Below, piece after piece: positions 12,274 to 51,990 of a stretch of 64,000 nucleotides of DNA. Both the position numbers and the translations under genes were made by a program. The notes under the pieces were generated by a model. That model saw only the letters and a program-made list of their open reading frames with translations, had not been told where the DNA came from and made no database searches. Location of the stretch: contig JAAYDA010000019.1 in the NCBI GenBank assembly GCA_012729505.1, positions 234 to 64,233 on the forward strand, given 5' to 3'. The number at the start of each line of letters is the position of its first letter. Position 1 is the stretch's first letter. The DNA is from Syntrophomonadaceae bacterium (GTDB lineage: Bacteria; Bacillota; Syntrophomonadia; Syntrophomonadales; DTU052).

Positions 12274-12379
12274 CAATGCAACATAATGTTCAATATGTGC
12301 GTATCAATCCTATATACCACATCATAAGATTCCGATTAAAAACCCTGAAGTTAGGGGCTTCCAGACCCAATTCGTAAGT

Positions 12380-14959: not shown

Positions 14960-15838
14960 CTACTTCAAAAACACCGACATTTCCACGGAATTGTTCTCCG
15001 TTCCGGGCCGGCCGTTTAAAAGGTTTTCTCTCCATTGCTTCATATGCAAGTTTCCCTGGGGATGAGTAAATATCATAAACTGTCCATCTTCCAGACCCTT
15101 GAATGCAATATCAACACATTGTTCAACCGGAATCCCCAGACTAACAAACTTCTTGCTGAGATAGTTGGCTTTCATCTGAGCCGGAGTCTTTTTGAAGGCC
15201 ACCCCTTCCTCATCCAGCGCATAGCGAGGAGAGCGGTTTCCCTCGATATCCCCGAAGTCAGTGGCGACAAAGCCCGGGCAAAGACCGTGAATCCATACTT
15301 TAGTGCCTTCGGCGCGCATCTGCAGTTCCAGGGATTCTGTTAGGGATAAGGCGGCGAACTTACTGGCGGCATAGGGTTGATTGGCAGCAAAGGAAAAGAA
15401 CGCCGACACCGAAAGAGTATTGATCACATGGCATTCCCTGTTCTGCTCAACCATGCGAGGGACAAAAGCCTGAGCTGCATATACCAGAGCCATGGTATTT
15501 ACTGCAAAGACCCATTCGAAATCCTTTAGGTAGGCTTCTGTTGCGTGGCCGCCCGCTGAAGCTCCCGCGTTATTAAACAAATAATCAACCGAGCCGAAGG
15601 CATCGAAAGTCAGGTTGGCGAATTTCTGCACCTCTTCCCTGCTGCTGACATCAATTATGTTGGCTATGACTTCCACCCCTCTGGCTTTCAGAGCAGTCTC
15701 CACCTCCGCCAGCTTAGGGCCATTAATGTCGGCCAGGGAAAGCCGGGCCCCATATTCGCCGAACCTCCCGGCCAAGCCTCTGCCAATACCACTGGCAGCG
15801 CCGGTGATAGCTATAATTTTTCCTGTGTAATCAGTCAT
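14960..15838 (-). CDS. short-chain dehydrogenase/reductase (SDR)
   Basis: It has TGAASGIG (the Rossmann TGxxxGIG), NNAG and the catalytic YAASK. Confidence 0.85.
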   Translation of the reverse strand: MTDYTGKIIAITGAASGIGRGLAGRFGEYGARLSLADINGPKLAEVETALKARGVEVIANIIDVSSREEVQKFANLTFDAFGSVDYLFNNAGASAGGHATEAYLKDFEWVFAVNTMALVYAAQAFVPRMVEQNRECHVINTLSVSAFFSFAANQPYAASKFAALSLTESLELQMRAEGTKVWIHGLCPGFVATDFGDIEGNRSPRYALDEEGVAFKKTPAQMKANYLSKKFVSLGIPVEQCVDIAFKGLEDGQFMIFTHPQGNLHMKQWRENLLNGRPGTENNSVEMSVFLK

Positions 15839-15883
15839 GTGTTATCTCCTTTCTGAGATAAGCTAATCCTTACCACTAAAGAT

Positions 15884-18800
15884 TTATTCTACAGGATATT
15901 TGATGTGGCCTTTAGCGGCAAAGTTTAATAAGTACTTATACATTAAGCTCATATCCGGCATTGGACTTTGAATGCCTGTTCCTGCCAAACCCTTTCGGAT
16001 GTTGGTTGTATCAAAATCAGGTTCCATATCGCCGTACCTTCTTACGATTGCGGTTTCTTCCGACTCATCGGCCGCAAAAAGAGATTCCAATATTTTTAAG
16101 ACATTGTTATCCGTAGCTTTAAACAACATCTTCTGCCATTCTTTGTACGGCATAAGTTTGGTCTGATAGCCCAGATTGTTTATGATCGCCTGCAATTCCT
16201 TGACACCGGCAATATCTTTATTAATTACATTAAAGGCTTTGCCAGGTGAGTCCTCCCGGGTGGAAAGAGCAACCACGGCCCGGCTGATAAAGTCAACCGG
16301 AGTAATATAAATGTTCACATTAATATCTGGTATAGCCTCCATCTGAATGCAGGCATTGAGAACCCGACTGACCAAATCGCTCATTTCCCAGATGCCATTT
16401 TTGCTGTCTCCGGTTATGTCACCCGGACGGTATATCGTGGCTTTCAAACCTCTTTGTTCAGCAGCACGAACCAGCTTTTCCGAAACCCATTTCGTTTCCG
16501 AGTACCCCAGAAAATACCCTTCGCCACAGGTTAACGGGTCGTCCTCCAAGGCAGGCTTTTGGAAATGGCTCGGATTATCATAGACACTGAATGTGGATAT
16601 GTAATGGAAGTATTTTGTTTTTTCCCGGCATGCCAGGCGGAGGCATTCAATAGTTCCGTCAACATTGGTCTTCTTAAGATGATTGTACGGAAAAATAAAG
16701 TTTAATAAAGCGCCGTTATGGTATATGGTGTCAATCATTCCGGCTAAAGCACCATACTCACCGGGCTCTATTCCCAATAGCGGTTTGGTCAAATCTCCTA
16801 ATACAGGCTTGATCCTATGGGCATAAGCATCGGCCCATATTTTGTATTTCTCCATGTTGCCCTTGATTCTGGCTAAGCCGTTTTCCTTATTGTCCGCACG
16901 GACATGGCAGTAAAGGTCGGCCTGGGTATGCTCCATCAGTTCTTTGATTAAGTATGCGCCCAAAAAACCCGTTGAACCCGTAAGAAAAACATTCTGCGGA
17001 CAAGAGATATCAGAATATTGATACGGACCGGGAATGATGTCCTCCGGCAACTCACAGTCCGCATAAAGGTAAGTTTTGTCATTCACAATATCTTCCCGCT
17101 TCATTATCTTTTTTATGTGTTCAGCAATTCCCCTGATGGTAGGTTTTTCAACCACATCCTTTAAGATAAGCGTTACTTCGAATTCCTCTTCCAGCGAACT
17201 TAAGAGATGAACCGTATCCAGGGAATCCCCCCCCAGACTGAAGAAGCTGTCTTCTGCAGTAATTCCTTCACCTGTTTCAATGATCTGGCCGAAGATCTTT
17301 TTAATCTTCAATTCCACTTCATCCGTAATTTCACTTTTGGCTTTAGCCGTCTCCACATTTTCAGGTTCAAGCAAGGCATCGGGCATAGTAAACAGCCGCT
17401 TGCTCTCGTAATTTTCCTTCACTTTGAACATCTGAATTTTACCATTGTCAGTTCGCGGCAAACCGCCTTCCCGGACAAAAAACACCTCAAAGGGGCTGAC
17501 TTCAAAATGCCGATGCACACTGTTCCGGATTTCCTCAATTAAGCTTTGGGTATCCAGACCTTCAGTATTGGCTTCAATACCGATCACAACTCGCTCTTTA
17601 CCCTGGATCCTGACAGGGAATACCGACATGGCACAGGGAGCCATGTCTTTTATGTCTTCCTTGATGTTTCGCTCAATATCCTGCGGATATATATTGTGCC
17701 CGTTAATGATGATCAGCTCTTTGCATCGACCAGTGATATAGAGCTCTCCTCCGGAAACAGCCCCAAGGTCCCCTGTTCTCAAATAGAACCCAGGGTGATC
17801 GGCCAATATTCCCCGGAACGTTTTACCGTTCTCTTCCGGCATATCCCAGTAACCGTCAGCAACACTTTCGCTTTGCAGCCATATTTCTCCGATTTCATTC
17901 TCACTGCACACCCTGCCGCTGTCGGGATCTACTACCGCGACTTTTGAATGATTAAATACCTTGCCAACACTGATAATTTCTTTTTTTCTTCCGTCATCCG
18001 CAATGTCTTCCGCTAATAAATTTTTCTGAAATTGCGCATAGCCCACTTCCCTGACCGGTATTTTTCGATTATTTCCTGCCACAAACATGGTTGATTCCGC
18101 CAAGCCATAGGCAGGGCAAAAAGCAAGGCTGTCGAACCCACTCGGACCAAACTTAAGACTGAACATCTTCAGGCTTTGGGAGTCAATCGGTTCGGAACCG
18201 TTTAAGGCGCATTTTAACGAGCTCAGGTCAATTCTCTTCAGGTCCTCTTCTTTAGCAATTTTTGCGCACAAAGCATAAGCAGAATTGGGTCCGGCCGTGG
18301 TATAGGCCTTAAATTCGCTAATAGCCTCCAGCCACCGGACTGGCTTTTCCATAAATGCTTGGGGCGACATAATAACACTTCTAAAATGGTAAAACACATT
18401 AAAAAACAAAAATGCCACTAAGCCGATATTATGAAAAAAGGGCACCCAGGAAACGGCAGTCTCAAAGGGTTCGTCTTTAAAGAAGCCGGCCAGGCTGGCC
18501 ATATTGTGCATCACATTCCTTTGGCTGATCATAATGCCTTTGGGGACGCTGGTAGACCCGGAAGAGTATTGCAGGTAAGCCAAATCATCCGGATTCATGC
18601 CACCTTTAACCCATGCGGCAGGCTCCGTGTCAATCTCTTCAACATTGATGACCGTAACCGCGTCATGAATAAACCTTAATACGGGATTTGTTTTGGCCGC
18701 CCGGAAAAGCGGCGTATTGCAGAGTATAAACTTGGCCCCGGACGAAGCTAATATATTGCTAAACCTTTGTACTTTGGGCTCGTCAATGGGAGGAGGAACC

Positions 18801-19078
18801 AAAACAAATACGGCCCCTGCCATCAAAGCTCCATAAAGGGAATAAACATTATCAGAGGTTTGCGTTGCAAAAACAATGACCCTGTCGCCTTTCTTGATCC
18901 CTTTTTCCTGTAAGTCAGCAGCTATCCTTCTGGCATTGTCATACGCCTCTCGATAGCTGATATTAATATCACACCGGGTACCGTCTTTATAGTTCAGAAA
19001 TGTATACGGAATCCCCTCCGGTTCATCCAACGCCTTTGCTGCTAATATTTCGACGACATTGGTCATGTCCATGGCCAC
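15884..19078 (-). CDS. fatty-acyl-AMP ligase - carrier protein - thioester reductase tri-domain enzyme (NRPS-like / CAR-like)
   Basis: The FAAL-type adenylation domain has LQYSSGSTSVPKG. The carrier domain has FFSLGGDSLD, the phosphopantetheine serine. The terminal reductase has VFLTGSTGFLGAYL. Confidence 0.85.
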   Translation of the reverse strand: MAMDMTNVVEILAAKALDEPEGIPYTFLNYKDGTRCDINISYREAYDNARRIAADLQEKGIKKGDRVIVFATQTSDNVYSLYGALMAGAVFVLVPPPIDEPKVQRFSNILASSGAKFILCNTPLFRAAKTNPVLRFIHDAVTVINVEEIDTEPAAWVKGGMNPDDLAYLQYSSGSTSVPKGIMISQRNVMHNMASLAGFFKDEPFETAVSWVPFFHNIGLVAFLFFNVFYHFRSVIMSPQAFMEKPVRWLEAISEFKAYTTAGPNSAYALCAKIAKEEDLKRIDLSSLKCALNGSEPIDSQSLKMFSLKFGPSGFDSLAFCPAYGLAESTMFVAGNNRKIPVREVGYAQFQKNLLAEDIADDGRKKEIISVGKVFNHSKVAVVDPDSGRVCSENEIGEIWLQSESVADGYWDMPEENGKTFRGILADHPGFYLRTGDLGAVSGGELYITGRCKELIIINGHNIYPQDIERNIKEDIKDMAPCAMSVFPVRIQGKERVVIGIEANTEGLDTQSLIEEIRNSVHRHFEVSPFEVFFVREGGLPRTDNGKIQMFKVKENYESKRLFTMPDALLEPENVETAKAKSEITDEVELKIKKIFGQIIETGEGITAEDSFFSLGGDSLDTVHLLSSLEEEFEVTLILKDVVEKPTIRGIAEHIKKIMKREDIVNDKTYLYADCELPEDIIPGPYQYSDISCPQNVFLTGSTGFLGAYLIKELMEHTQADLYCHVRADNKENGLARIKGNMEKYKIWADAYAHRIKPVLGDLTKPLLGIEPGEYGALAGMIDTIYHNGALLNFIFPYNHLKKTNVDGTIECLRLACREKTKYFHYISTFSVYDNPSHFQKPALEDDPLTCGEGYFLGYSETKWVSEKLVRAAEQRGLKATIYRPGDITGDSKNGIWEMSDLVSRVLNACIQMEAIPDINVNIYITPVDFISRAVVALSTREDSPGKAFNVINKDIAGVKELQAIINNLGYQTKLMPYKEWQKMLFKATDNNVLKILESLFAADESEETAIVRRYGDMEPDFDTTNIRKGLAGTGIQSPMPDMSLMYKYLLNFAAKGHIKYPVE

Positions 19079-19298
19079 ATCTCCTTATAAATCAATGAAA
19101 TCTATATTCTCACGGAATCCACTATAACAGTTTTTCAGTAGGTTATGGGCATAAATGCAAAAAATTCTTACCGCTTTTTTCGAACAGTTTTTCCGACACA
19201 AAAGCCCCGGCCAGTGCCGGAGCTTCTTTGATGAATGCTATCTAAAGGAGTCGCCGCTTGTGGCTTTCCACAGGAACACAGCAAAGGCGATCACATTA

Positions 19299-20036
19299 TC
19301 ATTTTGACCCGCAGAGACAAAAACGGTTTAAACCCAGGATCGCCGCAGCCCCTGCTATCGTCGTACCATAAAAGATCACCGGTTTGCCGGTCTGCAAAAA
19401 ATTCTCCAGGGTATTGTTAACCAAGGTACTCCCCGTAACCAGAAGAACATCACACCACTCAACAATATCTTTGGTATCTGTCTCGCCGCTTTCCACAGTA
19501 ATTCCGTATTTCGGCTGACCAATATTATCCGGGTCCAGATCGGCAATCCGTACGGGAAAACATCGGCTGCAAGCTTCCAGCAGAGCAGGTTGGAAACCAA
19601 TAATTCCCACCTTCGGTTCTCCATACTGTTCCTTAAGATAATGCGTAATGCCTTGTGCGCATTGCTCTGGCTCTTCATTCTTGCAATGCACCGTTTTCTC
19701 CGCCTTGCCTGAATAATTCATCACCGCATTCAGAACAGCCACAAAACAAGCCCGGTCAAAGTTATTATCCAGAGGAAATTCCAGAAAATCCTGAAGTATC
19801 CCGGTGAAATTACGGGGAGAATCTGTGAACGCCTGCCCCAAAGCTCCCTTAAATTCAGCCTGCACCAGACTTTCCTTGCCTTTCAGCAAAGGAAAATCAC
19901 GACGCTGTGGGTTGCCTATAGATTCTTCCGCAGATAAAATCTTGCCGCGAACAACCACCTTTTCCCCCAACAGATGATTAGTCTCAGCTTCCTCTGCCAG
20001 ATAGCCCTGTAATCTTTTCAAAATATCGGTTCCCAT
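19299..20036 (-). CDS. DUF364/DUF4213-type Rossmann-like protein (putative metal/cofactor chelation domain)
   Basis: 245 aa. The C-terminal IGFQP....DLDP..........DVLLVTGSTLVNNTL pattern matches what I recall of DUF364. It sits directly downstream of modC. Confidence 0.5.
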   Translation of the reverse strand: MGTDILKRLQGYLAEEAETNHLLGEKVVVRGKILSAEESIGNPQRRDFPLLKGKESLVQAEFKGALGQAFTDSPRNFTGILQDFLEFPLDNNFDRACFVAVLNAVMNYSGKAEKTVHCKNEEPEQCAQGITHYLKEQYGEPKVGIIGFQPALLEACSRCFPVRIADLDPDNIGQPKYGITVESGETDTKDIVEWCDVLLVTGSTLVNNTLENFLQTGKPVIFYGTTIAGAAAILGLNRFCLCGSK

Positions 20037-39257: not shown

Positions 39258-39529
39258 TACTCCTTTGCCCTGGCATTTATGAATATACTATAACATTTTT
39301 TAGGTTATGCGGCAGTTCTGCAGCTCAAGATTATGAACAAAACAGCTTGGGGAACATGTTCCGAATACATGGTATAGAATCACGTCATCATCCTTTTCGC
39401 CAAATAATATGTACTGCCGGTATATATGGGCCTTAGACTCAATATAAATATTTAGGGTATTTGTCGAATTTTTTCTGGAAATAGAGGTTATCATAACCAA
39501 ACAAATTATGATATATTTAGATTGAGACT

Positions 39530-40792
39530 ATGGATTATGAAGCGAGGGTGGTTAAATTGGTTGCGGATTCAGGCCTTCAAATTATAACCTTGGGAAACTT
39601 CGACCTGCGAAACGGCAATGGATCCCTGTTGGAGCCCAAACATAATCGATCTTATAAGATTATGGATCTCTTAAAGCTGTTTATTACATATAAAGATAAA
39701 AACATGATAGCCGATGCCATTGCCGAAAAGCTGTATCCCGAAAATGAGCTGCTGGACCCCAGAAACACATTGCGCACTCAGGTTTACCGTTTGCGCAAGA
39801 TGCTGGCTGAAATGGGGATTATGGACGACCCGGATGATGACCGTTATTGCCAGCTTAACTTTCAAAACGGATATTATGTCTTTTCTTTAAACGGCAACTG
39901 CAATCTTGATGTCGATTTATTCGAAAAGTACATTCAGAACGGCAATACCTTCAAGGACCAGGAGCCTGATCAGGCTATGGACTGGTATCGTAAGGCCCTG
40001 ACCCTTTATAAAGGGGAATACCTGCCGGATAATATGTACACCGAATGGGTCATCCCCACCAGAAACCGGTACCACAGACTTTACTTCCGGGCCTTGCTCC
40101 AGCAGCTGGACCTGCTGAAAAAAGATAACCTCGTCCAGGAAATTATAGAAACCTGTGAAGAGGCTTTTCAAATCGATCCTTACGAAGAAGCTGTTCAGGA
40201 GTACTATCTGGAATCACTGCTGATGCTGGGCCAGATTAAACAGGCCGCCAGCCACTATAAATACATAACCACCAAGCTGAATCAGGAATTGGGTATCAAG
40301 CCCTCCCCCGTTCTGCGGGAAATATATCAGGAAATCAAACGCAAAGCCATTCAGAAAAATGACATGAACTTTTTAGACATTATCCGCGACCTTCAGGAAG
40401 ATGAAGCCGTGGAAAGTGCTTTTGACTGTGATATGGAAGAATTTCGCGCCATTTACAACCTGGAAAAGAGAAAAAGCCTGCGTGATCCGGGCACCTCTTT
40501 TATCGGCTTTGTTTCCGCGCCTGCCGAGATCAGTCAATGGGAGCCCCGGGAGCTGAAAAGCTGTATGCAAAAGGTTAAGGGCATCCTCCTCTCTTCCCTG
40601 CGCCGCGGAGATGTGGTAACCCAGTGGAGCGAACGCACCGTTGTCTTTATTGTAACAGACACCTCCCCGGAGAGCCTGCCCTTCATATCTCGCCGGATCG
40701 AAAACCATTTCGACCGGGAAATTACTATAAAAAATGATGTGCCTTTAAGAATTGATTTTAAACAAATTGACGACAGCCAAGCCCTTCTGTAA
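39530..40792 (+). CDS. SARP/BTAD-family transcriptional regulator with a C-terminal degenerate GGDEF-like domain
   Basis: The N-terminus is an OmpR-type winged helix (..RNTLRTQVYRLRKML). The BTAD/TPR-like core has WYRKALTLYKGEYLPD. The C-terminal ~140 aa end in LRRGDVVTQWSERTVVFIV, which is RxxD plus 5 residues plus SERTV in place of GGDEF. Confidence 0.65.
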   Translation: MDYEARVVKLVADSGLQIITLGNFDLRNGNGSLLEPKHNRSYKIMDLLKLFITYKDKNMIADAIAEKLYPENELLDPRNTLRTQVYRLRKMLAEMGIMDDPDDDRYCQLNFQNGYYVFSLNGNCNLDVDLFEKYIQNGNTFKDQEPDQAMDWYRKALTLYKGEYLPDNMYTEWVIPTRNRYHRLYFRALLQQLDLLKKDNLVQEIIETCEEAFQIDPYEEAVQEYYLESLLMLGQIKQAASHYKYITTKLNQELGIKPSPVLREIYQEIKRKAIQKNDMNFLDIIRDLQEDEAVESAFDCDMEEFRAIYNLEKRKSLRDPGTSFIGFVSAPAEISQWEPRELKSCMQKVKGILLSSLRRGDVVTQWSERTVVFIVTDTSPESLPFISRRIENHFDREITIKNDVPLRIDFKQIDDSQALL

Positions 40793-40839
40793 TCATATAA
40801 CATAACCTTAAACAGCGCGGTAAACCCGCGCTTTTCTGC

Positions 40840-40937: not shown

Positions 40938-40966
40938 TTGACAAGTAACGCAAATTGCGTTACAAT
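40938..40966 (+). promoter_or_regulatory. sigma-A-type promoter with embedded palindromic operator for the dinJ-like gene
   Basis: TTGACA, a 17-nt spacer, then TACAAT. The spacer holds the perfect palindrome GTAACGCAAATTGCGTTAC (40945-40963). Confidence 0.7.
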
Positions 40967-40988
40967 GTCGGCAAAAGGAGTTGATAAT

Positions 40989-41342
40989 ATGGAAAAGTCT
41001 ACGACCCTGAATCTACGGGTAAATCCTATGGTTAAGCAGCAAGCTGAGAATGTTTTGAAGCAGTTGGGGGTTCCTATGGCTACTGCTGTAGATATGTTTT
41101 TGCGCCAGATCACCCTGACCGGAGGAATTCCCTTTGACGTATCCTTGCCTAAAGCGCCTGCAACCATCAACGCAGATACTATGACGGTAGAGCATCTGCG
41201 TGCAGAGTTGATGGCAGGTTATGAGGATATGAGGCAGGGCAACACACAAGAGGCCCCTGACGCCTTTGCCAAGTTTCGGGAAGCGCACAAAGGTGGTGGA
41301 AGGTTTGGGCGGGAAGGCAAGGGAGAAGATCGAAATGCTTAA
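40989..41342 (+). CDS. RelB/DinJ-family antitoxin
   Basis: RBS AAAGGAG precedes the start. MEKSTTLNLRVNPMVKQQAENVLKQLGVPMATAVDMFLRQI is the DinJ ribbon-helix-helix pattern. Confidence 0.7.
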   Translation: MEKSTTLNLRVNPMVKQQAENVLKQLGVPMATAVDMFLRQITLTGGIPFDVSLPKAPATINADTMTVEHLRAELMAGYEDMRQGNTQEAPDAFAKFREAHKGGGRFGREGKGEDRNA

Positions 41343-41607
41343 CCAAATATCATCAATTCGTGAAGAACTGGCTAATAATTTTACCGTTAAACGCATTGGA
41401 ATTTTCGGCTCATTTGCCCGAGGCGAGGAAAATGCCGAAAGTGATGTAGATATTATCGTTGAGCTTGATGAGCAAACCTTTGATCACTATATGGATTTAA
41501 AATTCCGGCTGGAAGAAGTGCTGCAGCGTCCAGTAGACTTAGTAATTGCCGATACTGTAAAGCCACGCCTTAAAGCGATTATTGAGCAGGAGGTTATCTA
41601 TGCCTAG
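41335..41607 (+). CDS. minimal nucleotidyltransferase (MNT, HEPN/MNT-type antitoxin-like)
   Basis: It has the GIFGSFARGEE..SDVDIIV motif. The start ATG 41335 overlaps the dinJ-like stop by 8 nt. No HEPN gene follows. Confidence 0.8.
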   Translation: MLNQISSIREELANNFTVKRIGIFGSFARGEENAESDVDIIVELDEQTFDHYMDLKFRLEEVLQRPVDLVIADTVKPRLKAIIEQEVIYA

Positions 41608-41609: not shown

Positions 41610-41815
41610 ATTCCCTCCATTACCCTCACCCCTCACCCCTCACCCCTCACTCCTCTCGCCTCACCCCTCCCGCAGTAACACGTAGTTAGTTCCACTTGCT
41701 CCCGGAAAGAGATTAAGGAATTAAGGAAGTTCGACGCTCCACGTCGAACCAAGCGAGGAGCACAAATCTCTTAACAAGATTTGGCTCCCGCCTGCCTCAC
41801 CCCTCCGCCTCACTT
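41610..41815 (+). repeat. mosaic structured repeat: C-rich tract + inverted M2 fragment + M1 double hairpin + C-rich tract
   Basis: M1 is GGAATTAAGGAAGTTCGACGCTCCACGTCGAACCAAGCGAGGAGCACAAATCTCTTAACAAGATTTGGCTCCCGCCTG (41717-41794). Related copies lie at 47294, 55848(-), 58503(-) and 63525. Confidence 0.85.
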
Positions 41816-41827
41816 TTCCATGTGCTC

Positions 41828-41930
41828 CTCCTGTGCCTGTTATGTACACTAAAAAAAATTAATAAAAAATTAACATGTGATTCTCTTGTATCTATCCTTG
41901 CAATTCCCCTATGTGATAGTAGGTTATGGT
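41828..41930 (+). promoter_or_regulatory. conserved ~105-nt upstream element (copy 1) with three ATGTRMW direct repeats spaced 33 and 36 nt
   Basis: It aligns with 49201-49305. The repeats are ATGTACA at 41842, ATGTGAT at 41875 and ATGTGAT at 41911. TTGCAA lies between the last two. Confidence 0.4.
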
Positions 41931-41955: not shown

Positions 41956-42165
41956 ATGCCTGATCAATATTGCATACAAGGTTGCACTCATGGGAAGGGA
42001 AACTTCCTTCTTAAAATCCTGTATACGCAAAACGACGATATCCAAGGCACAATTCAATGGCTGGAAGAAGAGAGAACCGTGAATTTTCGCAGCTTCTTAG
42101 AGTTAACCGCCCTCCTATATGAGGCGGTAGGCTTGATAGAAAGTCCACCGGTCTCTCATCCTTAA
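41956..42165 (+). CDS. small cytoplasmic protein (69 aa) heading the fibre operon; unknown function
   Basis: RBS CCAGGAGGG lies 6 nt before the ATG. GNFLLKILYTQNDDIQGTIQWLEEERTVNFRSFLELTALLYEAV resembles a small-protein family I recall next to sipW/tasA-like genes in Clostridia. That recollection is unverified. Confidence 0.4.
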   Translation: MPDQYCIQGCTHGKGNFLLKILYTQNDDIQGTIQWLEEERTVNFRSFLELTALLYEAVGLIESPPVSHP

Positions 42166-42228
42166 AGATATATTGGACAGCAGCTTTAAGTAACGCAACC
42201 AATTATTAGCCCGAAAGTGAGGTACTGC

Positions 42229-42885
42229 ATGATGAAGAAGGAAGGAACCGAAAACATTAATACCCCCGCCAAGCTCCTGAAAATTGCGGCTACCGGTGTG
42301 ATGATAATAGCCTTTACCGCTGGTTCTTTACACCTGGCCACTACCCAATCTTATTTTACCGACAAAGAAACAGGCTTCGCCTCATTTACTCTGGAGGTAA
42401 AACACTCTCAGCATAATTTAGCCGAGCAACTGGACCTTGGGACTAGCAGCACTCCCGGTGAAGAACCAAGCGCTCCCAGCGGAGGCTCAGTCAACCCCGG
42501 CAATGACGGCGACACCGGCGGAGGCGACAATGACGGCAACCCCGACACTGGCGACAACGACGGCGACACCGGCGGAGGTGACAATGACAGCAATACCGGC
42601 GGAGGCGACAACGACGGCAACACCGGCGGAGGCGACAACGACGGCAACACCGGCGGAGGCGACAACGACGGCAACACCGGCGGAGGCGACAGCGGTAGCA
42701 CCGGCGACAGCGGTAGCACCGGCGACAGCGGTAGCACCGGCGACAGCGGTAGCACCGGCGACAGCGGTAGCACCGGCGACAGCGGTAGCACCGGCGATAG
42801 CGGTGGCGGCAGCGACAGCGGTGGCGGCAGCGACGGCGGTGGCGGTAGCGACGGCGGCGGCGGCAGCGACGGCGGCGGCGAATAA
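42229..42885 (+). CDS. secreted protein with SipW-type signal peptide followed almost entirely by Gly/Asp/Asn/Ser/Thr repeats
   Basis: A TM segment is followed by ATTQSYFTDKE, like the SipW-cognate signal motif. A short strand GFASFTLEV comes next. The rest is (GDNDGNTGG)n, (DSGSTG)6 and (GGGSD)n. Confidence 0.6.
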   Translation: MMKKEGTENINTPAKLLKIAATGVMIIAFTAGSLHLATTQSYFTDKETGFASFTLEVKHSQHNLAEQLDLGTSSTPGEEPSAPSGGSVNPGNDGDTGGGDNDGNPDTGDNDGDTGGGDNDSNTGGGDNDGNTGGGDNDGNTGGGDNDGNTGGGDSGSTGDSGSTGDSGSTGDSGSTGDSGSTGDSGSTGDSGGGSDSGGGSDGGGGSDGGGGSDGGGE

Positions 42886-42901
42886 GGAGGCATCCCTGTA
42901 A

Positions 42902-43516
42902 GTGGCTGAGAACGAACAAGCAACCCCGGCGGAGCCAAAAAGAACCGGGTTGGAAAAAGCACTGAAAATAATAGGCAATGTAGTTTGGGGTCTGCTTCTC
43001 ATACTTATAGCCATAAGCATATTCTTCTTCGTACAGTACAAGATAACCGGCGGAACTCCCCAGATACTGGGGCACCGGATGTACATAGTTTTAAGCGGCA
43101 GTATGGAACCGGCGTTCAGTCCCCGCAGCCTGATTTTTGTTAAACCGATGGAGCCGGAGGAGATTCACGAAGGAGACATTATCACCTTCACCGGTGCCCA
43201 GGCCAATAGTAAAGACCTTACCACCCATCGGGTAATAGAGATTGAACGGGATGAAGCAGGGCAGTTAAGCTTTGTTACCAAGGGCGACGCCAATGACGTC
43301 AACGATCCCTACCCGGTACCCGGTGACAGGCTGATAGGCAAAGTAAACCTGGCCCTGCCCTTTCTGGGAGCGGTTATGGACTTTGCCCAGACAAAAGAAG
43401 GAATCTTGGCCTTGATAATTGTCCCCGGCGTTCTCCTCATAGGCATTGAGGCCCGAGGTATTATAGGTAACCTGGCTAAAAAGCCGGAACCGGATAACCC
43501 TGATGATGAAGTTTGA
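42902..43516 (+). CDS. sipW: signal peptidase I, archaeal/SipW type
   Basis: It has an N-terminal TM, the catalytic SGSMEP, THRVIE and KGDAND, and a C-terminal TM. RBS AAGGAGG lies 10 nt before the GTG start. Confidence 0.85.
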   Translation: MAENEQATPAEPKRTGLEKALKIIGNVVWGLLLILIAISIFFFVQYKITGGTPQILGHRMYIVLSGSMEPAFSPRSLIFVKPMEPEEIHEGDIITFTGAQANSKDLTTHRVIEIERDEAGQLSFVTKGDANDVNDPYPVPGDRLIGKVNLALPFLGAVMDFAQTKEGILALIIVPGVLLIGIEARGIIGNLAKKPEPDNPDDEV

Positions 43517-43532
43517 TGGAAGGAGAGAAACT

Positions 43533-44189
43533 ATGAAAAGGAAGATACTGTTTGGATTTCTGTTAATTAGCCTTCAGAGTTTTATGGTAGGAGGCGGCAC
43601 CATGGCTTACTTTACATCCGATGCCACTCTCGCTTCCACTGCTTTTAATTTCAGTACAGTGGACATAAAAATCGTAGAACCCGCTGCTCCCCAGTGTGGC
43701 GGCGGTGGCGGCCAGCAGAGCGCCGCATGGGAAATCACAAATGTCGGAGATCAGGATGTTCAGCTTCGGGTGAAGGTAACAGGGAGATTTGAAAATAATG
43801 AACTCAATACGATGGATACGGAAGAGATAGTTAATCTTACTGGTGAAGCCGACCTCATGAAAGGACCAGGAGGACCAGGAGGACCAGGAGGACCAGGAGG
43901 ACCAGGAGGACCAGGAGGTCCAGGAGGTCCAGGAGGTCCGGGAGGGCCAGGAGGGCCAGGTGGTTCATCCGAGCCTCCCACAGTTGATCTGGTGCCTTGT
44001 AATGGCTGGTATTTAGAAAACGGGTACTATTATTACGATGGTATATTACCCATGGGTGACTCGGTTCCCTTTAGTCTCACATTGAATAAAAGCGGAGGCA
44101 GCACAGGCACCTACAACTATAATCTTGATATCGAAGCCCAAGCCTTGCAGACCGTTAATGAGCCCCAGTGGACAGACGTCAGCTTTTAA
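43533..44189 (+). CDS. TasA/camelysin-like secreted protein with internal (GPG)n linker
   Basis: It has a SipW-type signal ([12 protein letters not shown]). It contains the run GPGGPGGPG... (ten GPG units). The C-terminal [12 protein letters not shown] is like the TasA-family end motif. Confidence 0.65.
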
Positions 44190-44309
44190 TTGCAGGAGAC
44201 ACCCCTTATTATAAATTTTTAGAAATCATAGATTTTTCTACAGTCCAGGGTTCTCTAGTATGCCAAACTTGAAAGGAGGCGAGATACTACTACATATTAT
44301 TCCCCCGAA

Positions 44310-44396
44310 ACAGATAAAGGCAAACCTGCCGAAAGACAGGGACGCAAAGCTATAGGGCCTTTCTGAAAGCAGAATGGCAGCCTGGCCGCCGATAAT
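44310..44396 (+). promoter_or_regulatory. c-di-GMP-I (GEMM-I) riboswitch
   Basis: AAAGGCAAACCTGCCGAAAGACAGGGACGCAAAGCTATAGGGCC....GGCAGCCTGGCCGCCGATAA matches the GGCAAA..GAAAG..GGACGCAAAGCC..GGGTTRCCGA core. It ends about 30 nt before the 44427 start. Confidence 0.8.
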
Positions 44397-44426
44397 TAAG
44401 TAATTAAGTATTGGAGGTAAAAAGGA

Positions 44427-45689
44427 ATGAATAGAAAACTATTATTGAGTTTATTAGCTATCGGTCTGATCGCCGCCCTTATCGGCGGAGCCACCATGGC
44501 ATGGTTTACCGATGAAGAAGCAGTAGCACCGGCAACGTTCACCGCAGGAACCGTGGTTGTAGATGTGGATGGCCCGGAGATTGGAACTCCAGATGGCAAA
44601 TTCTTCGACAATGTTAACCCGGGCGATTGTGCCAATGTTGAGTGGAATGTAGTTAACAAGGGAACCAAGGATGCTTACTTAAGAGTAAAACTGGCCGGAT
44701 CTTGGACAGATGAAAACTTACTTAATAATAACGTATTCTGGGCCCCTGATCCGACCAGCGGCTGGAAGGTTTTTGAAGATGCCGAAGGTGCTGTATGGCT
44801 GGTTTATCCCCAGATAGTAGCGGGAACATATGACAACGAACCAGGTGAATTTGTATCAGTAAAACTTCCCGTCATCATCGGTTTTGACGGCGACCTCACC
44901 GGCAACGTATACCAAGGCAAAACCTATATCCTAGGCGGAGAAGGCAGCGAAGTACAAGCAATTCAGGCTTCCAACGACGCAGCCTTAGCATCATGGGGCG
45001 AAGAATGGTCAGAGATTCTGGGCAATCCTGATTATACAGACGCATACCTGGATGCTGTTGACTACTTCACCAACCCCGAAAGAGGCGGCTATAAGATGCC
45101 TTGCTATGACCGTGGTGATCCTGTAGAAGAGCCCGGTGAGACCACTTTATACGATGTAATCGCTAATGTTATCGTTGCAGGCGGCGGCTCCGTAGTCGGC
45201 GACGACACCAACATAGCACCGAATACTCTCGTAACCCTGACAGCAACTGCTAACGAAGGCTTTGATTTCAAGGGTTGGACCTTGCCCGCAGGCCTGGTCT
45301 TAACTGATGGCAATGAAGAAAGTTCTACAATCGGCTTTGTAATGCCAGCCAATGATGTGAATGTAACCGCTAATTTCGCAGCAACTCCTGCTCCTGTTAA
45401 GTACAATCTGGACGCATCAGCATGGAAATATTATAAGGTTAATTATTGGGAGTATACTTGGGTGAAAAGCACTGATTACGGAACAGTCGCCCCCACCAGC
45501 GGCTCATATGATAAAGACACATCAGTAAAACTGACTGCTTCACCCAAACATGGTAAGAAAGTAAAACAATGGGATGAATACAAGAATGGCGACTGGAAGA
45601 AGATTTCCAATTCCGACGGCAAGACCAGCATTAACGTAACAATGAATGCTGACAAAACTATCAGAGTCGTCTTCTGCGACTGCAATTAA
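44427..45689 (+). CDS. TasA/camelysin-like fibre subunit with C-terminal InlB-B-repeat-like display domains
   Basis: It has a SipW-type signal (GGATMAWFTDEE), then DNVNPGDCANVEWNVVNKG and NVYQG...VQAIQASN. The C-terminal GGSVVGD..VTLTATANEGFDFKGW repeat is also present. Confidence 0.7.
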   Translation: MNRKLLLSLLAIGLIAALIGGATMAWFTDEEAVAPATFTAGTVVVDVDGPEIGTPDGKFFDNVNPGDCANVEWNVVNKGTKDAYLRVKLAGSWTDENLLNNNVFWAPDPTSGWKVFEDAEGAVWLVYPQIVAGTYDNEPGEFVSVKLPVIIGFDGDLTGNVYQGKTYILGGEGSEVQAIQASNDAALASWGEEWSEILGNPDYTDAYLDAVDYFTNPERGGYKMPCYDRGDPVEEPGETTLYDVIANVIVAGGGSVVGDDTNIAPNTLVTLTATANEGFDFKGWTLPAGLVLTDGNEESSTIGFVMPANDVNVTANFAATPAPVKYNLDASAWKYYKVNYWEYTWVKSTDYGTVAPTSGSYDKDTSVKLTASPKHGKKVKQWDEYKNGDWKKISNSDGKTSINVTMNADKTIRVVFCDCN

Positions 45690-45819
45690 TAGCAGGTAAA
45701 CAAATTGCTACACTGAAGAAATCTATTAAATACTAATAACCACCGTAATCCCGGGGTGCGCCCATAGCGCATCCCGGAGGATTACCTGATAAACTGCCCG
45801 AATAAGGAGGGTTGCAGTT

Positions 45820-46575
45820 ATGTTGAGGAGAAACCTAAAAATTATACTGGCCGTATTGTTGGCTTCCTTCCTTATGGCCGGGTCAGCCTTGGGAGCCACC
45901 GGATCCGGGTACAAGATAGTGGGGGAAAGCAACGGATTAGTCATTAGCGCCCCTGACGATCCGGAAAAAACCGATAACCTGAATCCCGGGGACATTAAAA
46001 ACTCACGGCTGGTGCTGAAGAACGAGGGATCTAACACACTGACCGTTTCCATGCGGACGGAGATCACCTGTGAGAACACCATACGCGGCGGTCAACTGGC
46101 CGACATTATGAAGCTGATCATCAAGGACGGCACCCGAGTCATTACCGATGAAACCTTCCGTCAGGCCCATGGCCGGGGGAACTTCGTAATTGGCAGCATG
46201 GCCCCGGGCGATGAAAAGACTCTGTACTTCAACGCGGATCTGCCCGGCGCAGCCGCCAACAACGATTACCAAGGCGCTAAAATGTGTGTTATATGGGTAT
46301 TCACCACTACCAGCAGCTCCACCGGAGGAGGCGGCGGCGGAGGTGGCGGCGGAGGCGGCGGCGGCGGTTTTGTTCCCGATGAGCCGGTCGTTACTCCTGG
46401 GGAACCGGATGTGGTCACCCCCGGTGAAATCCCAACCCCTGATGAAGAAATCATCGTACCGGATGAGGAAACTCCGCAAATGCCCAAAACCGGCGTAGGC
46501 AGCCCTCTGCCCTTTTACGCCCTGGGTGCCTTTGTACTCACCGGCGGAGTCTTCATTCTGAAGAAAAAACAATAA
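45820..46575 (+). CDS. sortase-anchored surface protein with TasA-like N-terminal domain, poly-Gly linker and MPKTG sorting signal
   Basis: It has a Sec signal, then NLNPGDIKNSRLVLKNEG and NDYQGAKMCVIWVF. A G14 run follows, then PQMPKTG, a hydrophobic helix and KKKQ. Confidence 0.75.
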   Translation: MLRRNLKIILAVLLASFLMAGSALGATGSGYKIVGESNGLVISAPDDPEKTDNLNPGDIKNSRLVLKNEGSNTLTVSMRTEITCENTIRGGQLADIMKLIIKDGTRVITDETFRQAHGRGNFVIGSMAPGDEKTLYFNADLPGAAANNDYQGAKMCVIWVFTTTSSSTGGGGGGGGGGGGGGGFVPDEPVVTPGEPDVVTPGEIPTPDEEIIVPDEETPQMPKTGVGSPLPFYALGAFVLTGGVFILKKKQ

Positions 46576-46591
46576 ACTGACACTCAGTAAA

Positions 46592-46627
46592 GAATAGCCG
46601 GTGACCCCGGCTATTCTTTTATTTTGC
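46592..46627 (+). terminator. intrinsic terminator after the LPXTG-type gene
   Basis: AGAATAGCCGG tgacc CCGGCTATTCT followed by TTTATTTTG. Confidence 0.7.
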
Positions 46628-46644
46628 TTAAAGAGGGATGACAG

Positions 46645-47235
46645 ATGCAACGAAAAATAGCGGCGGTACTTTTAATTCTCATCGGTCTGGCTATAGTAAG
46701 CTATCCCCTGGCCCGGGACGCCTACTTTGAATACCAGCAGAGAAAGCTGGCGGAGCTATGGCAGGCCGACCTCCAGCAGATCGACGGCGATGCTGCCATT
46801 GAATATACTATGGCCCAACCGGCCATCGATCTCACCAAAGAAATGGAAGGCCTTTTGATCATAGATAAGATCAAACTGACCGCCCCTATTCTTACGGGGA
46901 TCACCAACCGGAATCTTAATCTCTCCGTAGCCAGTGTGGAAAAAACAGGCCGCCCCGGCGAACCGGGCAACTACTGCATCGCCGGTCACCGCAGCCGTTC
47001 TTACGGTTTATTGTTCAACCGGCTGAACGAATTGGCCGTCGGGGATGATATTGTAGTCCAGACTGAGGATCAGACTTTTGTTTACCAGGTCACTGCCAGC
47101 AAGGTCGTAAAACCGGAAAATGTTGAGCTTCTGAAGCCTGACGGGGACCGAAAGCTCATCACCCTGATAACCTGCGATTACAGCGTAAAAAAACCCTATC
47201 TCCGCCTGATCGTCACGGGGGAATTGGAAGAGTGA
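46645..47235 (+). CDS. sortase-family transpeptidase
   Basis: It has an N-terminal TM, IAGHRS (catalytic His), TLITC (catalytic Cys) and LRLIV (Arg). Confidence 0.85.
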   Translation: MQRKIAAVLLILIGLAIVSYPLARDAYFEYQQRKLAELWQADLQQIDGDAAIEYTMAQPAIDLTKEMEGLLIIDKIKLTAPILTGITNRNLNLSVASVEKTGRPGEPGNYCIAGHRSRSYGLLFNRLNELAVGDDIVVQTEDQTFVYQVTASKVVKPENVELLKPDGDRKLITLITCDYSVKKPYLRLIVTGELEE

Positions 47236-49107: not shown

Positions 49108-49200
49108 AATAATCTGCGTTCATCTGCGTTTTCGTTTCCCCGTTCCCCGTCCCTCGTCTTCCCGTATCTCCTCCCGCCTCACTCCTTTCTCATCGCAACA
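49108..49200. repeat. mosaic repeat fragment (ATCTGCGT units + C-rich tract)
   Basis: AATCTGCGTTCATCTGCGTTTTCGTTTCCCCGTTCCCCGTCCCTCGTC..CCTCCCGCCTCACTCCTTTCTC shares modules with 50571-50690 and 63230-63290. Confidence 0.75.
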
Positions 49201-49305
49201 CTCCCGTGTGCCTGTCATGTACACTAAAAGAGATTCATAAAAAATGTCCGTGTAATTCTCTTATATCTCCCCATGCAATTCCCTTATGTAATAGTAGGTT
49301 ATAGT
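49201..49305 (+). promoter_or_regulatory. conserved ~105-nt upstream element (copy 2)
   Basis: It aligns with 41828-41930. ATGTACA at 49217, GTGTAAT at 49250 and ATGTAAT at 49286 have the same 33/36-nt spacing. Confidence 0.4.
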
Positions 49306-49376: not shown

Positions 49377-50510
49377 ATGAAGAGAAAACTACTATTAAGT
49401 ATACTGACTGTAAGCTTGATCTCCGCTCTTATTGGCGGAGCAACAATGGCCTGGTTCACCGATGAAGCCAAAGTAACAGAAGTACATTTCCAGGCAGGAA
49501 CAGTCAAAGTGGCTACAGATGCGGATTCACCCAACATTGCAGTGCCACCGGGCAAATCACTGGATAATGTTAACCCGGGAGATTGTGCCACCATAACCTG
49601 GAATATTGTTAACGAAGGCACCAAGGCGGCTCAATTGAGAGTCAATCTAAAGGCATTATGGGATGCTGCTCCAGGTATCAGTGAAGATTTAACTTTAGAT
49701 AACGTCTACTACGTTCCTGCTCCTGACAGCAGCTGGGTTCTTTATGAAGACACAAACAAGGTGCTGTGGCTGGTTTATCCCGAATCCGTGCGGGGAACAT
49801 ATAATTCTGCAAATCCTGAAATGCCTTTAGAGCCTGCAGAAATACCGCTTACAGTCGTCATCGGTTTTGACGGTATAGGTACCGGCAACGAATATCAAGG
49901 TGCCGAATTTACCCTGGGCAGTGAAGGCAGCCAAGTAGAAGCTATCCAGGCTTCCAACAACGCCCCCTTGGCAGTATGGGGTGACGAATGGGAGGCAGTT
50001 CTCAATAGAACTTATGTGCCGGTAACTGGTCTGGACGCAAGATACATGAATTATTTCAGCCCGGGACAGCCTGGATATGAAATGGTATGCTTCCAGCATT
50101 TCATCGGTGGAGATGATAACCCTCCTGCCAATAATAAAAAATATAAATTGACCGTCGAAGTATGGGAAGGAGATAGTCAGCGAAACAGTAACCCGTGGAA
50201 GCTTGTAAAAAGTGACCAGCAGGGAGCATCAGACTATGCAGCTAAACTAGTAATACCTAATTTAGCGGCTGACGCAGCAGTGGTGAAATTAACAGCTAAA
50301 GAACACAGCACAGCGCACTTTGTAGAGTGGCAGTATAAAGATGGTTCTGTATGGAAAACATTGACTAACCAAGGCACTACTCAAGGCTCTGGTCAAAGCG
50401 CAATTCACGAATTGAACTTTCCTATTAATACCGAATTTTTAAATAATCCAGATCAAAACGGTAATAATAAAGATATTTATGTCAGAGCCCTCTACGGGTC
50501 TCCCCAATAA
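49377..50510 (+). CDS. TasA/camelysin-like fibre subunit paralogue with a different C-terminal domain
   Basis: It has a SipW-type signal (GGATMAWFTDEA). The first ~210 aa are colinear with the 44427 protein (DNVNPGDCATITWNIVNEG, NEYQG..VEAIQASN). The C-terminal ~170 aa are unrelated. Confidence 0.7.
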   Translation: MKRKLLLSILTVSLISALIGGATMAWFTDEAKVTEVHFQAGTVKVATDADSPNIAVPPGKSLDNVNPGDCATITWNIVNEGTKAAQLRVNLKALWDAAPGISEDLTLDNVYYVPAPDSSWVLYEDTNKVLWLVYPESVRGTYNSANPEMPLEPAEIPLTVVIGFDGIGTGNEYQGAEFTLGSEGSQVEAIQASNNAPLAVWGDEWEAVLNRTYVPVTGLDARYMNYFSPGQPGYEMVCFQHFIGGDDNPPANNKKYKLTVEVWEGDSQRNSNPWKLVKSDQQGASDYAAKLVIPNLAADAAVVKLTAKEHSTAHFVEWQYKDGSVWKTLTNQGTTQGSGQSAIHELNFPINTEFLNNPDQNGNNKDIYVRALYGSPQ

Positions 50511-50690: not shown

Positions 50691-50730
50691 ATAATTATTT
50701 TTTTCTGCTAAAATTAGATATAAGTAAAGT

Positions 50731-50812
50731 TGATAAAGGCAAATTCGTCGAAAGGCGGAGACGCAAAGCCACGGGCCTAAGACCGGAAGGTTATGGTCGC
50801 CGGGTTGCCGAT
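50731..50812 (+). promoter_or_regulatory. c-di-GMP-I (GEMM-I) riboswitch, first of a tandem pair
   Basis: AAAGGCAAATTCGTCGAAAGGCGGAGACGCAAAGCCACGGGCCTAAGACC..GGTCGCCGGGTTGCCGATAA aligns closely with the Vc2 aptamer sequence as I recall it. Confidence 0.9.
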
Positions 50813-50831
50813 AATAAAGTGATGATTCCAT

Positions 50832-50869
50832 CATCTGTTTCGGTATCCCGAGGCAGATGTTTTTGTTTT
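50832..50869 (+). terminator. intrinsic terminator / expression platform of the first riboswitch
   Basis: CATCTG..(16 nt)..CAGATG followed by TTTTTGTTTT. Confidence 0.6.
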
Positions 50870-50904
50870 ATCCGACTCTTTGCGTAAAAAGCGAATAGCA
50901 AAAC

Positions 50905-50986
50905 CGATAATGGCAAATCCGTCGAAAGGCGGAGACGCAAAGCCACGGGCCTAAGACCGAAAGGTTATGGTCGCCGGGTTGCCGAA
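50905..50986 (+). promoter_or_regulatory. c-di-GMP-I (GEMM-I) riboswitch, second of the tandem pair
   Basis: AATGGCAAATCCGTCGAAAGGCGGAGACGCAAAGCCACGGGCCTAAGACC..GGTCGCCGGGTTGCCGAAG is nearly identical to the first aptamer. Confidence 0.9.
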
Positions 50987-51093: not shown

Positions 51094-51990
51094 ATGAGGT
51101 CCAAAAAGATTGCCGCCCGGCTTCTAACGTCGATTCTGGCCGCCCTGGTTATTATGGCAGTGTTCGCCGCCCCGTCCCTTGCCGCTGCCTACAGTATCTC
51201 TTTTTCGACTCCCACCATTCAGGTTGCCTCTCCCTCTGTGAACAATACCACTTATGATAAGACCATGTGGGTAGAAGGAACCAGCACCCTGTCCAAAGTA
51301 TGGATTTGTCTGCGGGGACCCAATGGCGAATTAGCCGTCTATCCTGCCGAGGTCAAGAACGGCAGCTTCGGTGAAGAAATATGGCTGCGGTTTGGAACCG
51401 GGAAATATACGGTCTGGGCCGGAGACAATGAAAAGCGTTTTGATGGGAAAATCCGCTTTGAGATTGAGAATTCTTCCCGGGAAGATTACCGCAATCTGGC
51501 CCCATCCGCCCAAGTCAACCCCGAAGATCAATTGATTCAAAAGATAGCGGACAGCATCATAACTGAAAAAATGTCCGATAAGGAGAAGGCTCGGGCTATC
51601 CACGGCTGGGTAACCAACAATATATCCTATGATACCACCGCTTACTTCAGCGGCAATGTTGGATTAAACTCCGCCGCCGATATAATTGCCAGCAAAAAAG
51701 GATTATGCCGGGACTTTTCATTTGTCTATGCTTCCCTGGCCCGCGCCGCCAATATTCCCACCCGGGTCGTTTATGGCGACGCCTGGAACTCCTCTTCCCA
51801 AGCCTACGAAAAACACGCCTGGAACGAATCTTTCATCGATGGTGAATGGATCAATATTGACACCACCTGGGATGCGGGCTATATCAACAGTAAGCAGAAT
51901 TTTGTCCGGGCCGCCGGAGACAAATATTTTAACGCCGATACTATAACCTTCGCCAAGACCCATAAGGTCACATCAGTAACCCTGTTCTAG
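51094..51990 (+). CDS. secreted transglutaminase-like (Cys-His-Asp) protein
   Basis: It has a signal peptide (..VFAAPSLAAA). The transglutaminase core is KKGLCRDFSFVY (Cys), KHAWNE (His) and NIDTTWD (Asp). Confidence 0.8.
   Translation: MRSKKIAARLLTSILAALVIMAVFAAPSLAAAYSISFSTPTIQVASPSVNNTTYDKTMWVEGTSTLSKVWICLRGPNGELAVYPAEVKNGSFGEEIWLRFGTGKYTVWAGDNEKRFDGKIRFEIENSSREDYRNLAPSAQVNPEDQLIQKIADSIITEKMSDKEKARAIHGWVTNNISYDTTAYFSGNVGLNSAADIIASKKGLCRDFSFVYASLARAANIPTRVVYGDAWNSSSQAYEKHAWNESFIDGEWINIDTTWDAGYINSKQNFVRAAGDKYFNADTITFAKTHKVTSVTLF

Follow-up and report, generated by a model that had tools for sequence, protein, structure and literature searches.

A SARP-type regulator fused to a degenerate GGDEF domain, a predicted c-di-GMP receptor upstream of surface-fibre genes in a Syntrophomonadaceae bacterium

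What would a transcriptional regulator do with a GGDEF domain that appears to have lost the ability to make cyclic diguanosine monophosphate (c-di-GMP)? The question is raised by a gene at 39530-40792 in a stretch of 64,000 nucleotides (nt) from a Syntrophomonadaceae bacterium (contig JAAYDA010000019.1 of assembly GCA_012729505.1, positions 234 to 64,233). We call this whole stretch the window, and all features given for it are on its forward strand. An earlier note on this DNA had proposed that the gene encodes a SARP/BTAD regulator fused to a degenerate GGDEF-like domain, and that this domain acts as a c-di-GMP receptor through its inhibitory site (I-site). Our analysis leaves hardly any doubt about the architecture: the regulator is a SARP, with an OmpR-type winged helix and a bacterial transcriptional activator domain (BTAD), fused to a truncated and dead GGDEF-fold domain. 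The receptor reading is supported by the sequences, and every part of it that could be tested in silico held. We lean towards the view that the regulator is a c-di-GMP-sensing activator of fibre operons, with the ligand at R358, D361 and R389.

The open reading frame (ORF) is uninterrupted and encodes 420 amino acids (aa), while the version given by the gene caller begins six codons later and has 414. The host genome, complete to 100 % and assembled in 80 contigs (2.45 Mb), has a single copy of the gene. The comparison set consisted of 57 full-length relatives of the regulator, and labels such as L007 and G016 denote the relatives' loci or genomes that were compared. PF03704 (BTAD) was found at residues 126-269 (39905-40336) with 70.6 bits (E 2.4e-19, cut-off 22.1), covering profile positions 1-145 of 146. 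Residues 16-120, approximately (39575-39889), were assigned to an OmpR/PhoB-type winged-helix DNA-binding domain from Pfam matches in the relatives and from Foldseek. Trans_reg_C was matched by 56 of the 57 relatives with a best E of 4.7e-10, and R87 and R89 of the recognition helix are invariant in the alignment. An AlphaFold2 model built on the 57 relatives had a mean predicted local distance difference test score (pLDDT) of 87.5. The top Foldseek matches of this model were EmbR and AfsR (E 5e-11 to 2e-9, target template modelling (TM) score up to 0.77); the BTAD matched AfsR 8k60 at E 1e-10 and TM 0.75-0.77, and the winged-helix region also matched the DNA-binding domain of CovR (3rjp). By domain content the regulator belongs to the SARP family, and the proposed fusion is borne out at exactly the place where it had been put.

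The C-terminal part, from about residue 297 to 415 (40418-40774), is a truncated GGDEF-like domain with the element order alpha-beta-alpha-alpha-beta-beta-alpha-beta. PF00990 (GGDEF) reached only 16 bits in the regulator (E 0.01, cut-off 23.8; residues 345-395 on profile positions 58-108), and the homology was established through the family profile and the fold. PF00990 was matched by 46 of the 57 relatives, with a best E of 3.5e-7, and GGDEF_2 (PF17853) gave weak matches in two. A profile of the C-terminal 135 residues, made from 30 relatives, matched the solved diguanylate cyclases 4urg (E 1.9e-8), 4wxw, 6zxm, 7e6g and 3ezu; against 4urg the family sequence RrGDvvtqwnesq falls on RRSDVVARYGGDEF without a gap. 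Foldseek returned, after the SARPs, dozens of GGDEF domains, e.g. 6khu (TM 0.68, root-mean-square deviation 2.7 A, 117 columns), 4zvg, 4urg and 3ign. The predicted topology (helix 302-318, strand 324-329, helices 332-336 and 339-356, strands 362-365 and 370-375, helix 380-397, strand 407-412) is that of the GGDEF core, and the regulator stops after the fourth strand, where the last helix and strand of a cyclase would start. The weak GGDEF match is real homology. The GGDEF-like layout seen by the earlier note thus stands, and it was recovered in the structure prediction as well, but the domain has a length of about 125 aa instead of the supposed 140 or so and is cut off after the fourth strand.

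Translation of 40601-40696 gives RRGDVVTQWSERTVVFIVTDTSPESLPFISRR, which puts RRGD at residues 358-361 and SERTV at residues 367-371 (40628-40642). In the ungapped alignment to TM1788 (4urg), RRGDVVTQWSERTV lies on RRSDVVARYGGDEF, so that SERTV takes the place of GG(D/E)EF, as had been suggested. None of the 57 family members has GG(D/E)EF: the position of the first Gly is Gly in 0/57 and that of the second in 5/57. The metal-ligand position (PleD E370) is Arg in the regulator and Ser, His or Thr across the family. Strand 1 has no Asp (FIGFVS in the regulator), which leaves the PleD metal ligand D327 without a counterpart, and the C-terminal helix and strand with the substrate-binding residues K442 and R446 of PleD are missing (for the catalytic and substrate roles of the PleD residues see PMC12943098). 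The loss of the motif, the metal ligands and the substrate-binding segment indicates that the domain is not a diguanylate cyclase and is catalytically dead, in agreement with the earlier prediction. An alignment with real GGDEF domains by MAFFT mis-threaded the N-terminal half, placing the C-D-x-x-x-F helix of the family on the DxD-FK motif. This threading was rejected because the hidden Markov model alignment and the AlphaFold2 secondary structure agree with each other, and the motif half alone of the MAFFT alignment was used.

What the domain has retained is the I-site. In PleD the allosteric site is made up of R359 and D362 (the RxxD motif) and R390, to which the neighbouring domain adds R313; GGEEF occupies 368-372 (PMC7288161). 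In the regulator, RRGD (40601-40612) is the RxxD motif of the primary I-site, with R358 and D361, and it aligns on RRSD of 4urg. Exactly five residues separate D361 from S367; RRGD is therefore in the I-site register upstream of SERTV, as claimed before. The ungapped alignment also gave a third primary I-site residue that had not been named, R389 (40694-40696), the equivalent of PleD R390, which stands 31 residues past R358 as in PleD and TM1788. The spacings of R358, D361, S367 and R389 (+3, +9 and +31) equal those of PleD R359, D362, G368 and R390. R358 is conserved in 57, D361 in 56 and R389 in 56 of the 57 relatives, which places all three within the eight positions of the domain that vary least. 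Five genuine GGDEF domains of the host genome served as an internal control: each has GGDEF or GGEEF, but only three have RxxD and only one has Arg at the R390 position. The triad is thus kept better than in the live cyclases of the genome; its conservation is no mere by-product of the fold, and this argues against a purely structural role. The pattern of conservation indicates that the I-site of the dead domain is intact and under selection. Two near-invariant arginines, R314 and R318 (40469-40483; 56/57 and 55/57), lie where the helix ahead of strand 1 ends, and may occupy the position of the secondary I-site residue R313 of PleD, an equivalence taken from predicted secondary structure only.

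The best of the alternatives is that the dead GGDEF domain serves dimerisation or scaffolding without any ligand: it would pair the SARP protomers on the direct repeats or dock a partner, e.g. the product of a conserved small ORF described below, and the Arg/Asp/Arg residues would be structural or part of a protein-protein interface. GGDEF domains dimerise during catalysis, extra C-terminal domains oligomerise large SARPs (AfsR 8hvr and 8k60 are among the Foldseek matches), and the small ORF co-occurs tightly with the regulator and could be such a partner. The invariant C300, F305 and E312 have no c-di-GMP explanation; C300 and F305 (57/57) are at the start of the dead domain (40427-40444), are not accounted for by the I-site model, and may belong to a domain interface or make a further ligand contact. 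However, the conserved residues are the exact I-site triad in its canonical spacing, better preserved than in the genome's own active cyclases, and a scaffold would leave the recurrent vicinity of c-di-GMP riboswitches (below) without explanation. We regard it as unlikely, and take the domain as a probable c-di-GMP sensor in what follows.

Where would such a regulator bind? Two elements of 105 nt (41828-41930 and 49201-49305), which are 82 % identical in alignment and have unrelated flanks, had been named as elements for a test of DNA binding. The elements hold as predicted operators, and heptamers on an 11-nt register describe them better than repeats 33 or 36 nt apart. Predicted operator/promoter 1 (41821-41920) has TGTGCTC at 41821, TGTGCCT at 41832 and TGTACAC at 41843, then an A-tract, then TGTGATT at 41876, TGTATCT at 41887 and TTGCAAT at 41898, followed by a TG-extended -10 (TGTGATAGT, 41912-41920); the transcript is predicted to begin close to 41927. 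Predicted operator/promoter 2 (49207-49295) has the same layout before a TasA-like gene (49377-50510): TGTGCCT at 49207, TGTACAC at 49218, TGTAATT at 49251, TATATCT at 49262, ATGCAAT at 49273 and TGTAATAGT at 49287-49295. Exact matches to TGTGCCT-N4-TGTRCVC occur at these two elements alone in the 64 kb, with one other match at one mismatch, where 0.11 would be expected by chance. The classic box bound by a SARP activator consists of direct heptamer repeats phased by 11 nt, which overlap the -35 and lie close to the -10. Since the phased heptamers have this established geometry, the regulator probably acts at both promoters.

The same layout was found ahead of the small ORF of the L007 regulator, which is 61 % identical to that of the window. 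In more distant loci the heptamers, TGTGAC-like or GGTGAC-like, number two to seven and follow each other every 11 nt; the last one usually stops about 9 nt short of a hexamer that resembles a -10. Of 24 regions upstream of small ORFs, 20 had a simple pattern of two half-sites; its density there was 2.4/kb as compared with 0.035/kb in the other 630 kb examined, an enrichment of about 69-fold. From these repeats we consider it likely that the regulator controls the adjacent small-ORF and fibre operons through phased heptamers. An RNA reading of the 105-nt element was tried and rejected: the folding z-scores were +0.33 and -0.32, and a relaxed Rfam search was empty there. With no RNA-structure signal and no Rfam match, the element is read as a promoter/operator at the DNA level. 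Two further observations concern the repeats. Short C-rich repeats of the type CACCCCT flank the operator elements and toxin-antitoxin cassettes (41610-41670, 41790-41815 and 49140-49190). In L011/G027 (L045), three consecutive units at 11300-19850 look like a modular regulon layout, each with three GGTGAC heptamers at 11-nt steps, a double-module small protein of 172-182 aa and a large SpaA-type pilin gene.

The first gene 3' of predicted operator 1 is a conserved small ORF (41956-42165), which the earlier note had overlooked when it named the elements. It encodes 69 aa from an ATG behind the ribosome-binding site AGGAGGG, was recognised by comparing loci, and is predicted to have three strands and a helix. 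In nearly every locus it lies directly after the regulator and ahead of the fibre genes. Its core of about 45 aa (FL.KV.F.QN..WQG.I.W...K...FRS.LE...L..EA) exists singly, as two adjacent ORFs, or doubled within proteins of 156-182 aa; relatives are at 3318-3569 in L007, 11459-11785 in L001, 11430-11708 in L009, and 11567-12115, 14929-15453 and 19329-19847 in L011. The small ORF had no sequence match in Pfam, NCBIfam or PDB, and its model (core pLDDT 88-94) had no significant fold match, the best E being 0.41. Among 125 genomes of the class, the regulator was present in 18 of the 20 with the small ORF, and the small ORF in 2 of the 103 without the regulator, although the kinship of the genomes inflates any formal test of this co-occurrence.

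Downstream of the small ORF lies the fibre operon (42217-47235; Pfam, NCBIfam), which encodes a secreted protein rich in Gly, Asp and Ser, a SipW-type signal peptidase, two TasA/camelysin-like proteins, an LPXTG protein and a sortase. Counting the gene at 49377-50510, three TasA/camelysin-like proteins are encoded between the ends of the locus that holds the riboswitches. A c-di-GMP-I-GGC riboswitch aptamer (44310-44394; RF03167, 66 bits) stands immediately before the TasA-like gene at 44427-45689, and tandem c-di-GMP-I riboswitches (50728-50986; RF01051, 84 and 89 bits) precede a Transglut_core/DUF553 gene at 51094-51990. These three are all the riboswitches of c-di-GMP-I type in the host genome, and all are 3.5-10 kb downstream of the regulator, i.e. 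within 11 kb. Seven proteins of the genome pass the cut-off for a full-length GGDEF domain, so the enzymes that make the signal are present.

The regulator gene itself looks monocistronic, because a terminator-like hairpin with a T-run (40814-40832) directly follows its stop codon. A TG-extended promoter-like site, TTATCA-18-TATATT, precedes it at 39488-39517, found in a consensus scan and to be taken as a pattern match only. Between the regulator and the fibre operon a cassette of a RelB-like (RelB/DinJ-like) antitoxin and an MNT-type nucleotidyltransferase (40938-41607; Pfam) has been inserted, which is absent from this place in the homologous loci and is not part of the regulator system. 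The distance of 1.1 kb to the fibre locus given by the earlier note is correct as a figure, but the gap is this inserted cassette, and in other loci it measures 200-500 nt.

The relatives, at 28-61 % identity, are also directly upstream of surface-structure genes in the compared loci. Genes 3' of the regulator encode a 1263-aa surface protein with SipW, TasA-like and sortase proteins in L001, a Flp/Tad pilus in L007 and G081, a 1083-aa protein with a sortase in L009, and three SpaA-type pilins in L011/G027, while L005 and L012 simply have a DUF553 gene beside the regulator. Using a covariance model from the riboswitches, we found aptamers within a few kb of the regulator in 12 of the loci, of about 28 examined (the window, L005, L007, L009, L012, G016, G019, G021, G022, G025, G074 and G081). 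In G016, G019 and G021 the sole riboswitch of the genome is 1.2-1.4 kb from the regulator. The link to a riboswitch-controlled fibre locus is therefore no coincidence of the window but recurs in many unrelated loci. Wherever the gene next to the riboswitch could be identified by similarity it was DUF553; tandem c-di-GMP riboswitches, in twos or threes, repeatedly have the Transglut_core/DUF553 gene as their target, and this gene accompanies the regulator (besides that of the window, L005 11697-12494, L012 11647-12402, and on the reverse strand L007 11670-12575 and L009 15842-16735). The order on one strand in G022 and G025 is riboswitch, DUF553, regulator, which may place the regulator on a riboswitch-controlled transcript in these two. 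The regulator often occurs as two paralogues, in tandem or a few kb apart (L007, G033, G034, G036, G037, G038, G081), each with its own small ORF and heptamer repeats; those of L007, at 483-1730 and 1871-3112, are 32 % and 61 % identical to the regulator of the window. As to the riboswitches themselves, L005 has three near-identical c-di-GMP-I-GGC aptamers in tandem, 124 nt apart, between the regulator and the DUF553 gene (11357-11682), G071:C1:2356130-2356983 has four c-di-GMP-I aptamers on one strand, set regularly about 256 nt apart, and the genomes of genus g25 have up to 27 riboswitches each as compared with 1-5 in most relatives.

On the mechanism that we infer, the regulator would carry a shrunken GGDEF sensor that has lost the parts which make c-di-GMP and has kept the allosteric I-site. 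When c-di-GMP rises, an intercalated c-di-GMP dimer would bind at R358, D361 and R389 of one protomer and be clamped, as in PleD, by an arginine of a second domain, for which R314 and R318 of the neighbouring protomer are candidates. The SARP protomers would thereby be paired or ordered on the TGTGAC-like heptamers, which follow in 11-nt steps and overlap the weak -35 of both promoters, and would activate the operon of the small ORF and the TasA, SipW and sortase genes together with the paralogous TasA-like gene. At the RNA level the signal would be read once more, by the riboswitches of the locus that precede the TasA-like gene and the DUF553 gene.

The sign of the response might also be the opposite: c-di-GMP would bind but switch the regulator off, so that the fibre genes are activated (or repressed) at low c-di-GMP only. 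The I-site of cyclases is inhibitory, its occupancy immobilising the domains in an inactive arrangement (PMC7288161), and the riboswitches could be the positive arm of the circuit and the protein the negative one. Surface fibres, pili and adhesins are, however, typical outputs of high c-di-GMP, the I-site receptors PssE and YdaK act positively, and SARPs are activators, with the repeats here placed like SARP boxes by the weak -35; none of these points is decisive. We consider an off-switch quite unlikely. That the pocket binds another nucleotide (pGpG, GTP, cyclic GMP-AMP, cyclic di-AMP or (p)ppGpp) is very unlikely: degenerate GGDEF domains do bind GTP (CC3396) or hydrolyse ATP (YybT) (PMC7288161), and one riboswitch of the locus and the three in L005 are of the c-di-GMP-I-GGC variant, whose ligand specificity is not known to be settled, but CC3396 and YybT use the active site, which is dismantled in the regulator, the tandem riboswitches beside most homologues are canonical c-di-GMP-I (80-91 bits), and c-di-GMP is the documented ligand of I-sites that combine RxxD with an Arg at the R390 position (PMC7288161, PMC4125290).

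Genomes that carry a c-di-GMP sensor should make c-di-GMP, and a survey of cyclases in the phylum was run as an attempt at refutation. With the C-terminal profile at E <= 1e-18, 401 genomes across the phylum from 278 genera were searched, and the family was found in 47 of the genomes (about 12 %) and 41 of the genera, nearly all ORFs being of 400-450 aa. GGDEF enzymes were present in all 47 carrier genomes and absent from 35 of the 354 non-carriers, where about four carriers without a cyclase would be expected by chance. This co-occurrence is only mildly supportive across the phylum, and within the class (125/125) it is uninformative, which is one of several points that weigh against a c-di-GMP-sensing activator. 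The match of the regulator itself to Trans_reg_C, at 22.1 bits, is under the cut-off of 26.2, and its own GGDEF score is below the Pfam cut-off too. The domain is truncated while known I-site receptors have a full-length GGDEF fold, and the c-di-GMP pocket may therefore not form as it does in them. The heptamer pattern was chosen after viewing the same sequences in which it was counted, and genomes that are related do not count as independent cases. Fewer than half of the loci have a riboswitch close to the regulator, and in the genus whose paralogues come in pairs (G033-G038) there is none in the vicinity.

A wider reading of these findings can be offered tentatively, and we hold it to be somewhat less probable than not. 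The fusions of SARP and dead GGDEF would be a widespread Bacillota class of c-di-GMP-dependent activators, forming a two-tier circuit with an obligate small beta-beta-beta-alpha partner and with the riboswitches, in which, under the same reservation, the protein gates the initiation of transcription and the RNA gates individual subunits and the transglutaminase-like DUF553 enzyme. Such a circuit, if true, would set when TasA-type fibres, Flp pili and sortase-anchored adhesins get built. Apart from riboswitches, PilZ proteins and a small number of I-site receptors, Gram-positive anaerobes have few known c-di-GMP effectors, and transcription factors that read c-di-GMP are largely unknown there. 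The family would, if the reading is true, supply one, and would offer as handles a predicted pocket of three residues, a predicted TGTGAC-like operator and a predicted regulon of TasA/sortase fibres, Flp/Tad pili and SpaA pilins. Since it occurs in 41 of the 278 genera, it could explain the switch to surface-attached growth in many Clostridia, gut and syntrophic species included.

Compared with known SARPs (AfsR, ActII-ORF4 and DnrI of Streptomyces, EmbR of Mycobacterium), the regulator has the same N-terminal OmpR-type winged helix and BTAD, and the same arrangement of direct heptamer repeats on an 11-nt register by the -10 is predicted for it. Unlike them, it belongs to Bacillota and not to Actinomycetota, and its appendage is a dead GGDEF domain, whereas EmbR has FHA and AfsR has NB-ARC/TPR. 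Its targets would be surface-fibre operons instead of antibiotic clusters, and its heptamer is TGTGAC-like instead of TCGAGXX-like. Geobacter GSU1771 was considered as a precedent and rejected, as this SARP has a receiver domain, not a GGDEF domain. In full-text searches of the literature we found no paper on a BTAD/SARP-GGDEF fusion as a receptor, only co-mentions.

Among regulators that read c-di-GMP, the DNA-binding proteins FleQ, VpsT, VpsR, MrkH, BldD, Clp and BrlR are set by it at biofilm or surface promoters, and the regulator would work alike, although it has no sequence relationship to them. None of these is known to rely on a sensor derived from GGDEF or on a SARP module for DNA binding. 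PucR/CdaR-type regulators (PF17853, GGDEF_2) are also transcription factors with a degenerate GGDEF-like domain, but their DNA-binding domain and domain order are different, and the present family favours PF00990 (46/57). Regulators of the PucR/CdaR type are not known to have a conserved I-site.

The sensor half is most like PssE (Listeria), YdaK (B. subtilis), PelD (P. aeruginosa) and PopA (Caulobacter), which have a GGDEF fold with GG(D/E)EF destroyed and RxxD five residues upstream, and whose outputs are likewise matrix or surface structures. PssE, with the motif DKDDA and RxxD five residues upstream of it, binds two c-di-GMP per protein with a Kd of 0.79 uM (PMC4125290), and in YdaK, whose motif SDERI resembles the SERTV of the regulator, RxxD (R202/D205) is essential (PMC5422440). 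These proteins are membrane or polar-localised post-translational effectors with a full-length GGDEF domain, whereas the regulator is soluble and DNA-binding, and its domain is truncated to about 125 aa. None of the sequence features by which degenerate-GGDEF I-site receptors are defined is missing from it, and c-di-GMP binding is predicted for it on this ground. With PleD and TM1788 (4urg, the best sequence match to the domain) it shares the I-site residues in identical spacing, R358, D361 and R389 corresponding to PleD R359, D362 and R390. Unlike in PleD and TM1788, there is no catalysis to inhibit, and the I-site would be the only function of the domain; if this is true, the allosteric site through which an enzyme is inhibited by its product has been given a new use, as an independent sensor attached to a DNA-binding protein. 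The regulator thus joins two known kinds, the SARP activator and the I-site receptor, and is not categorically new.

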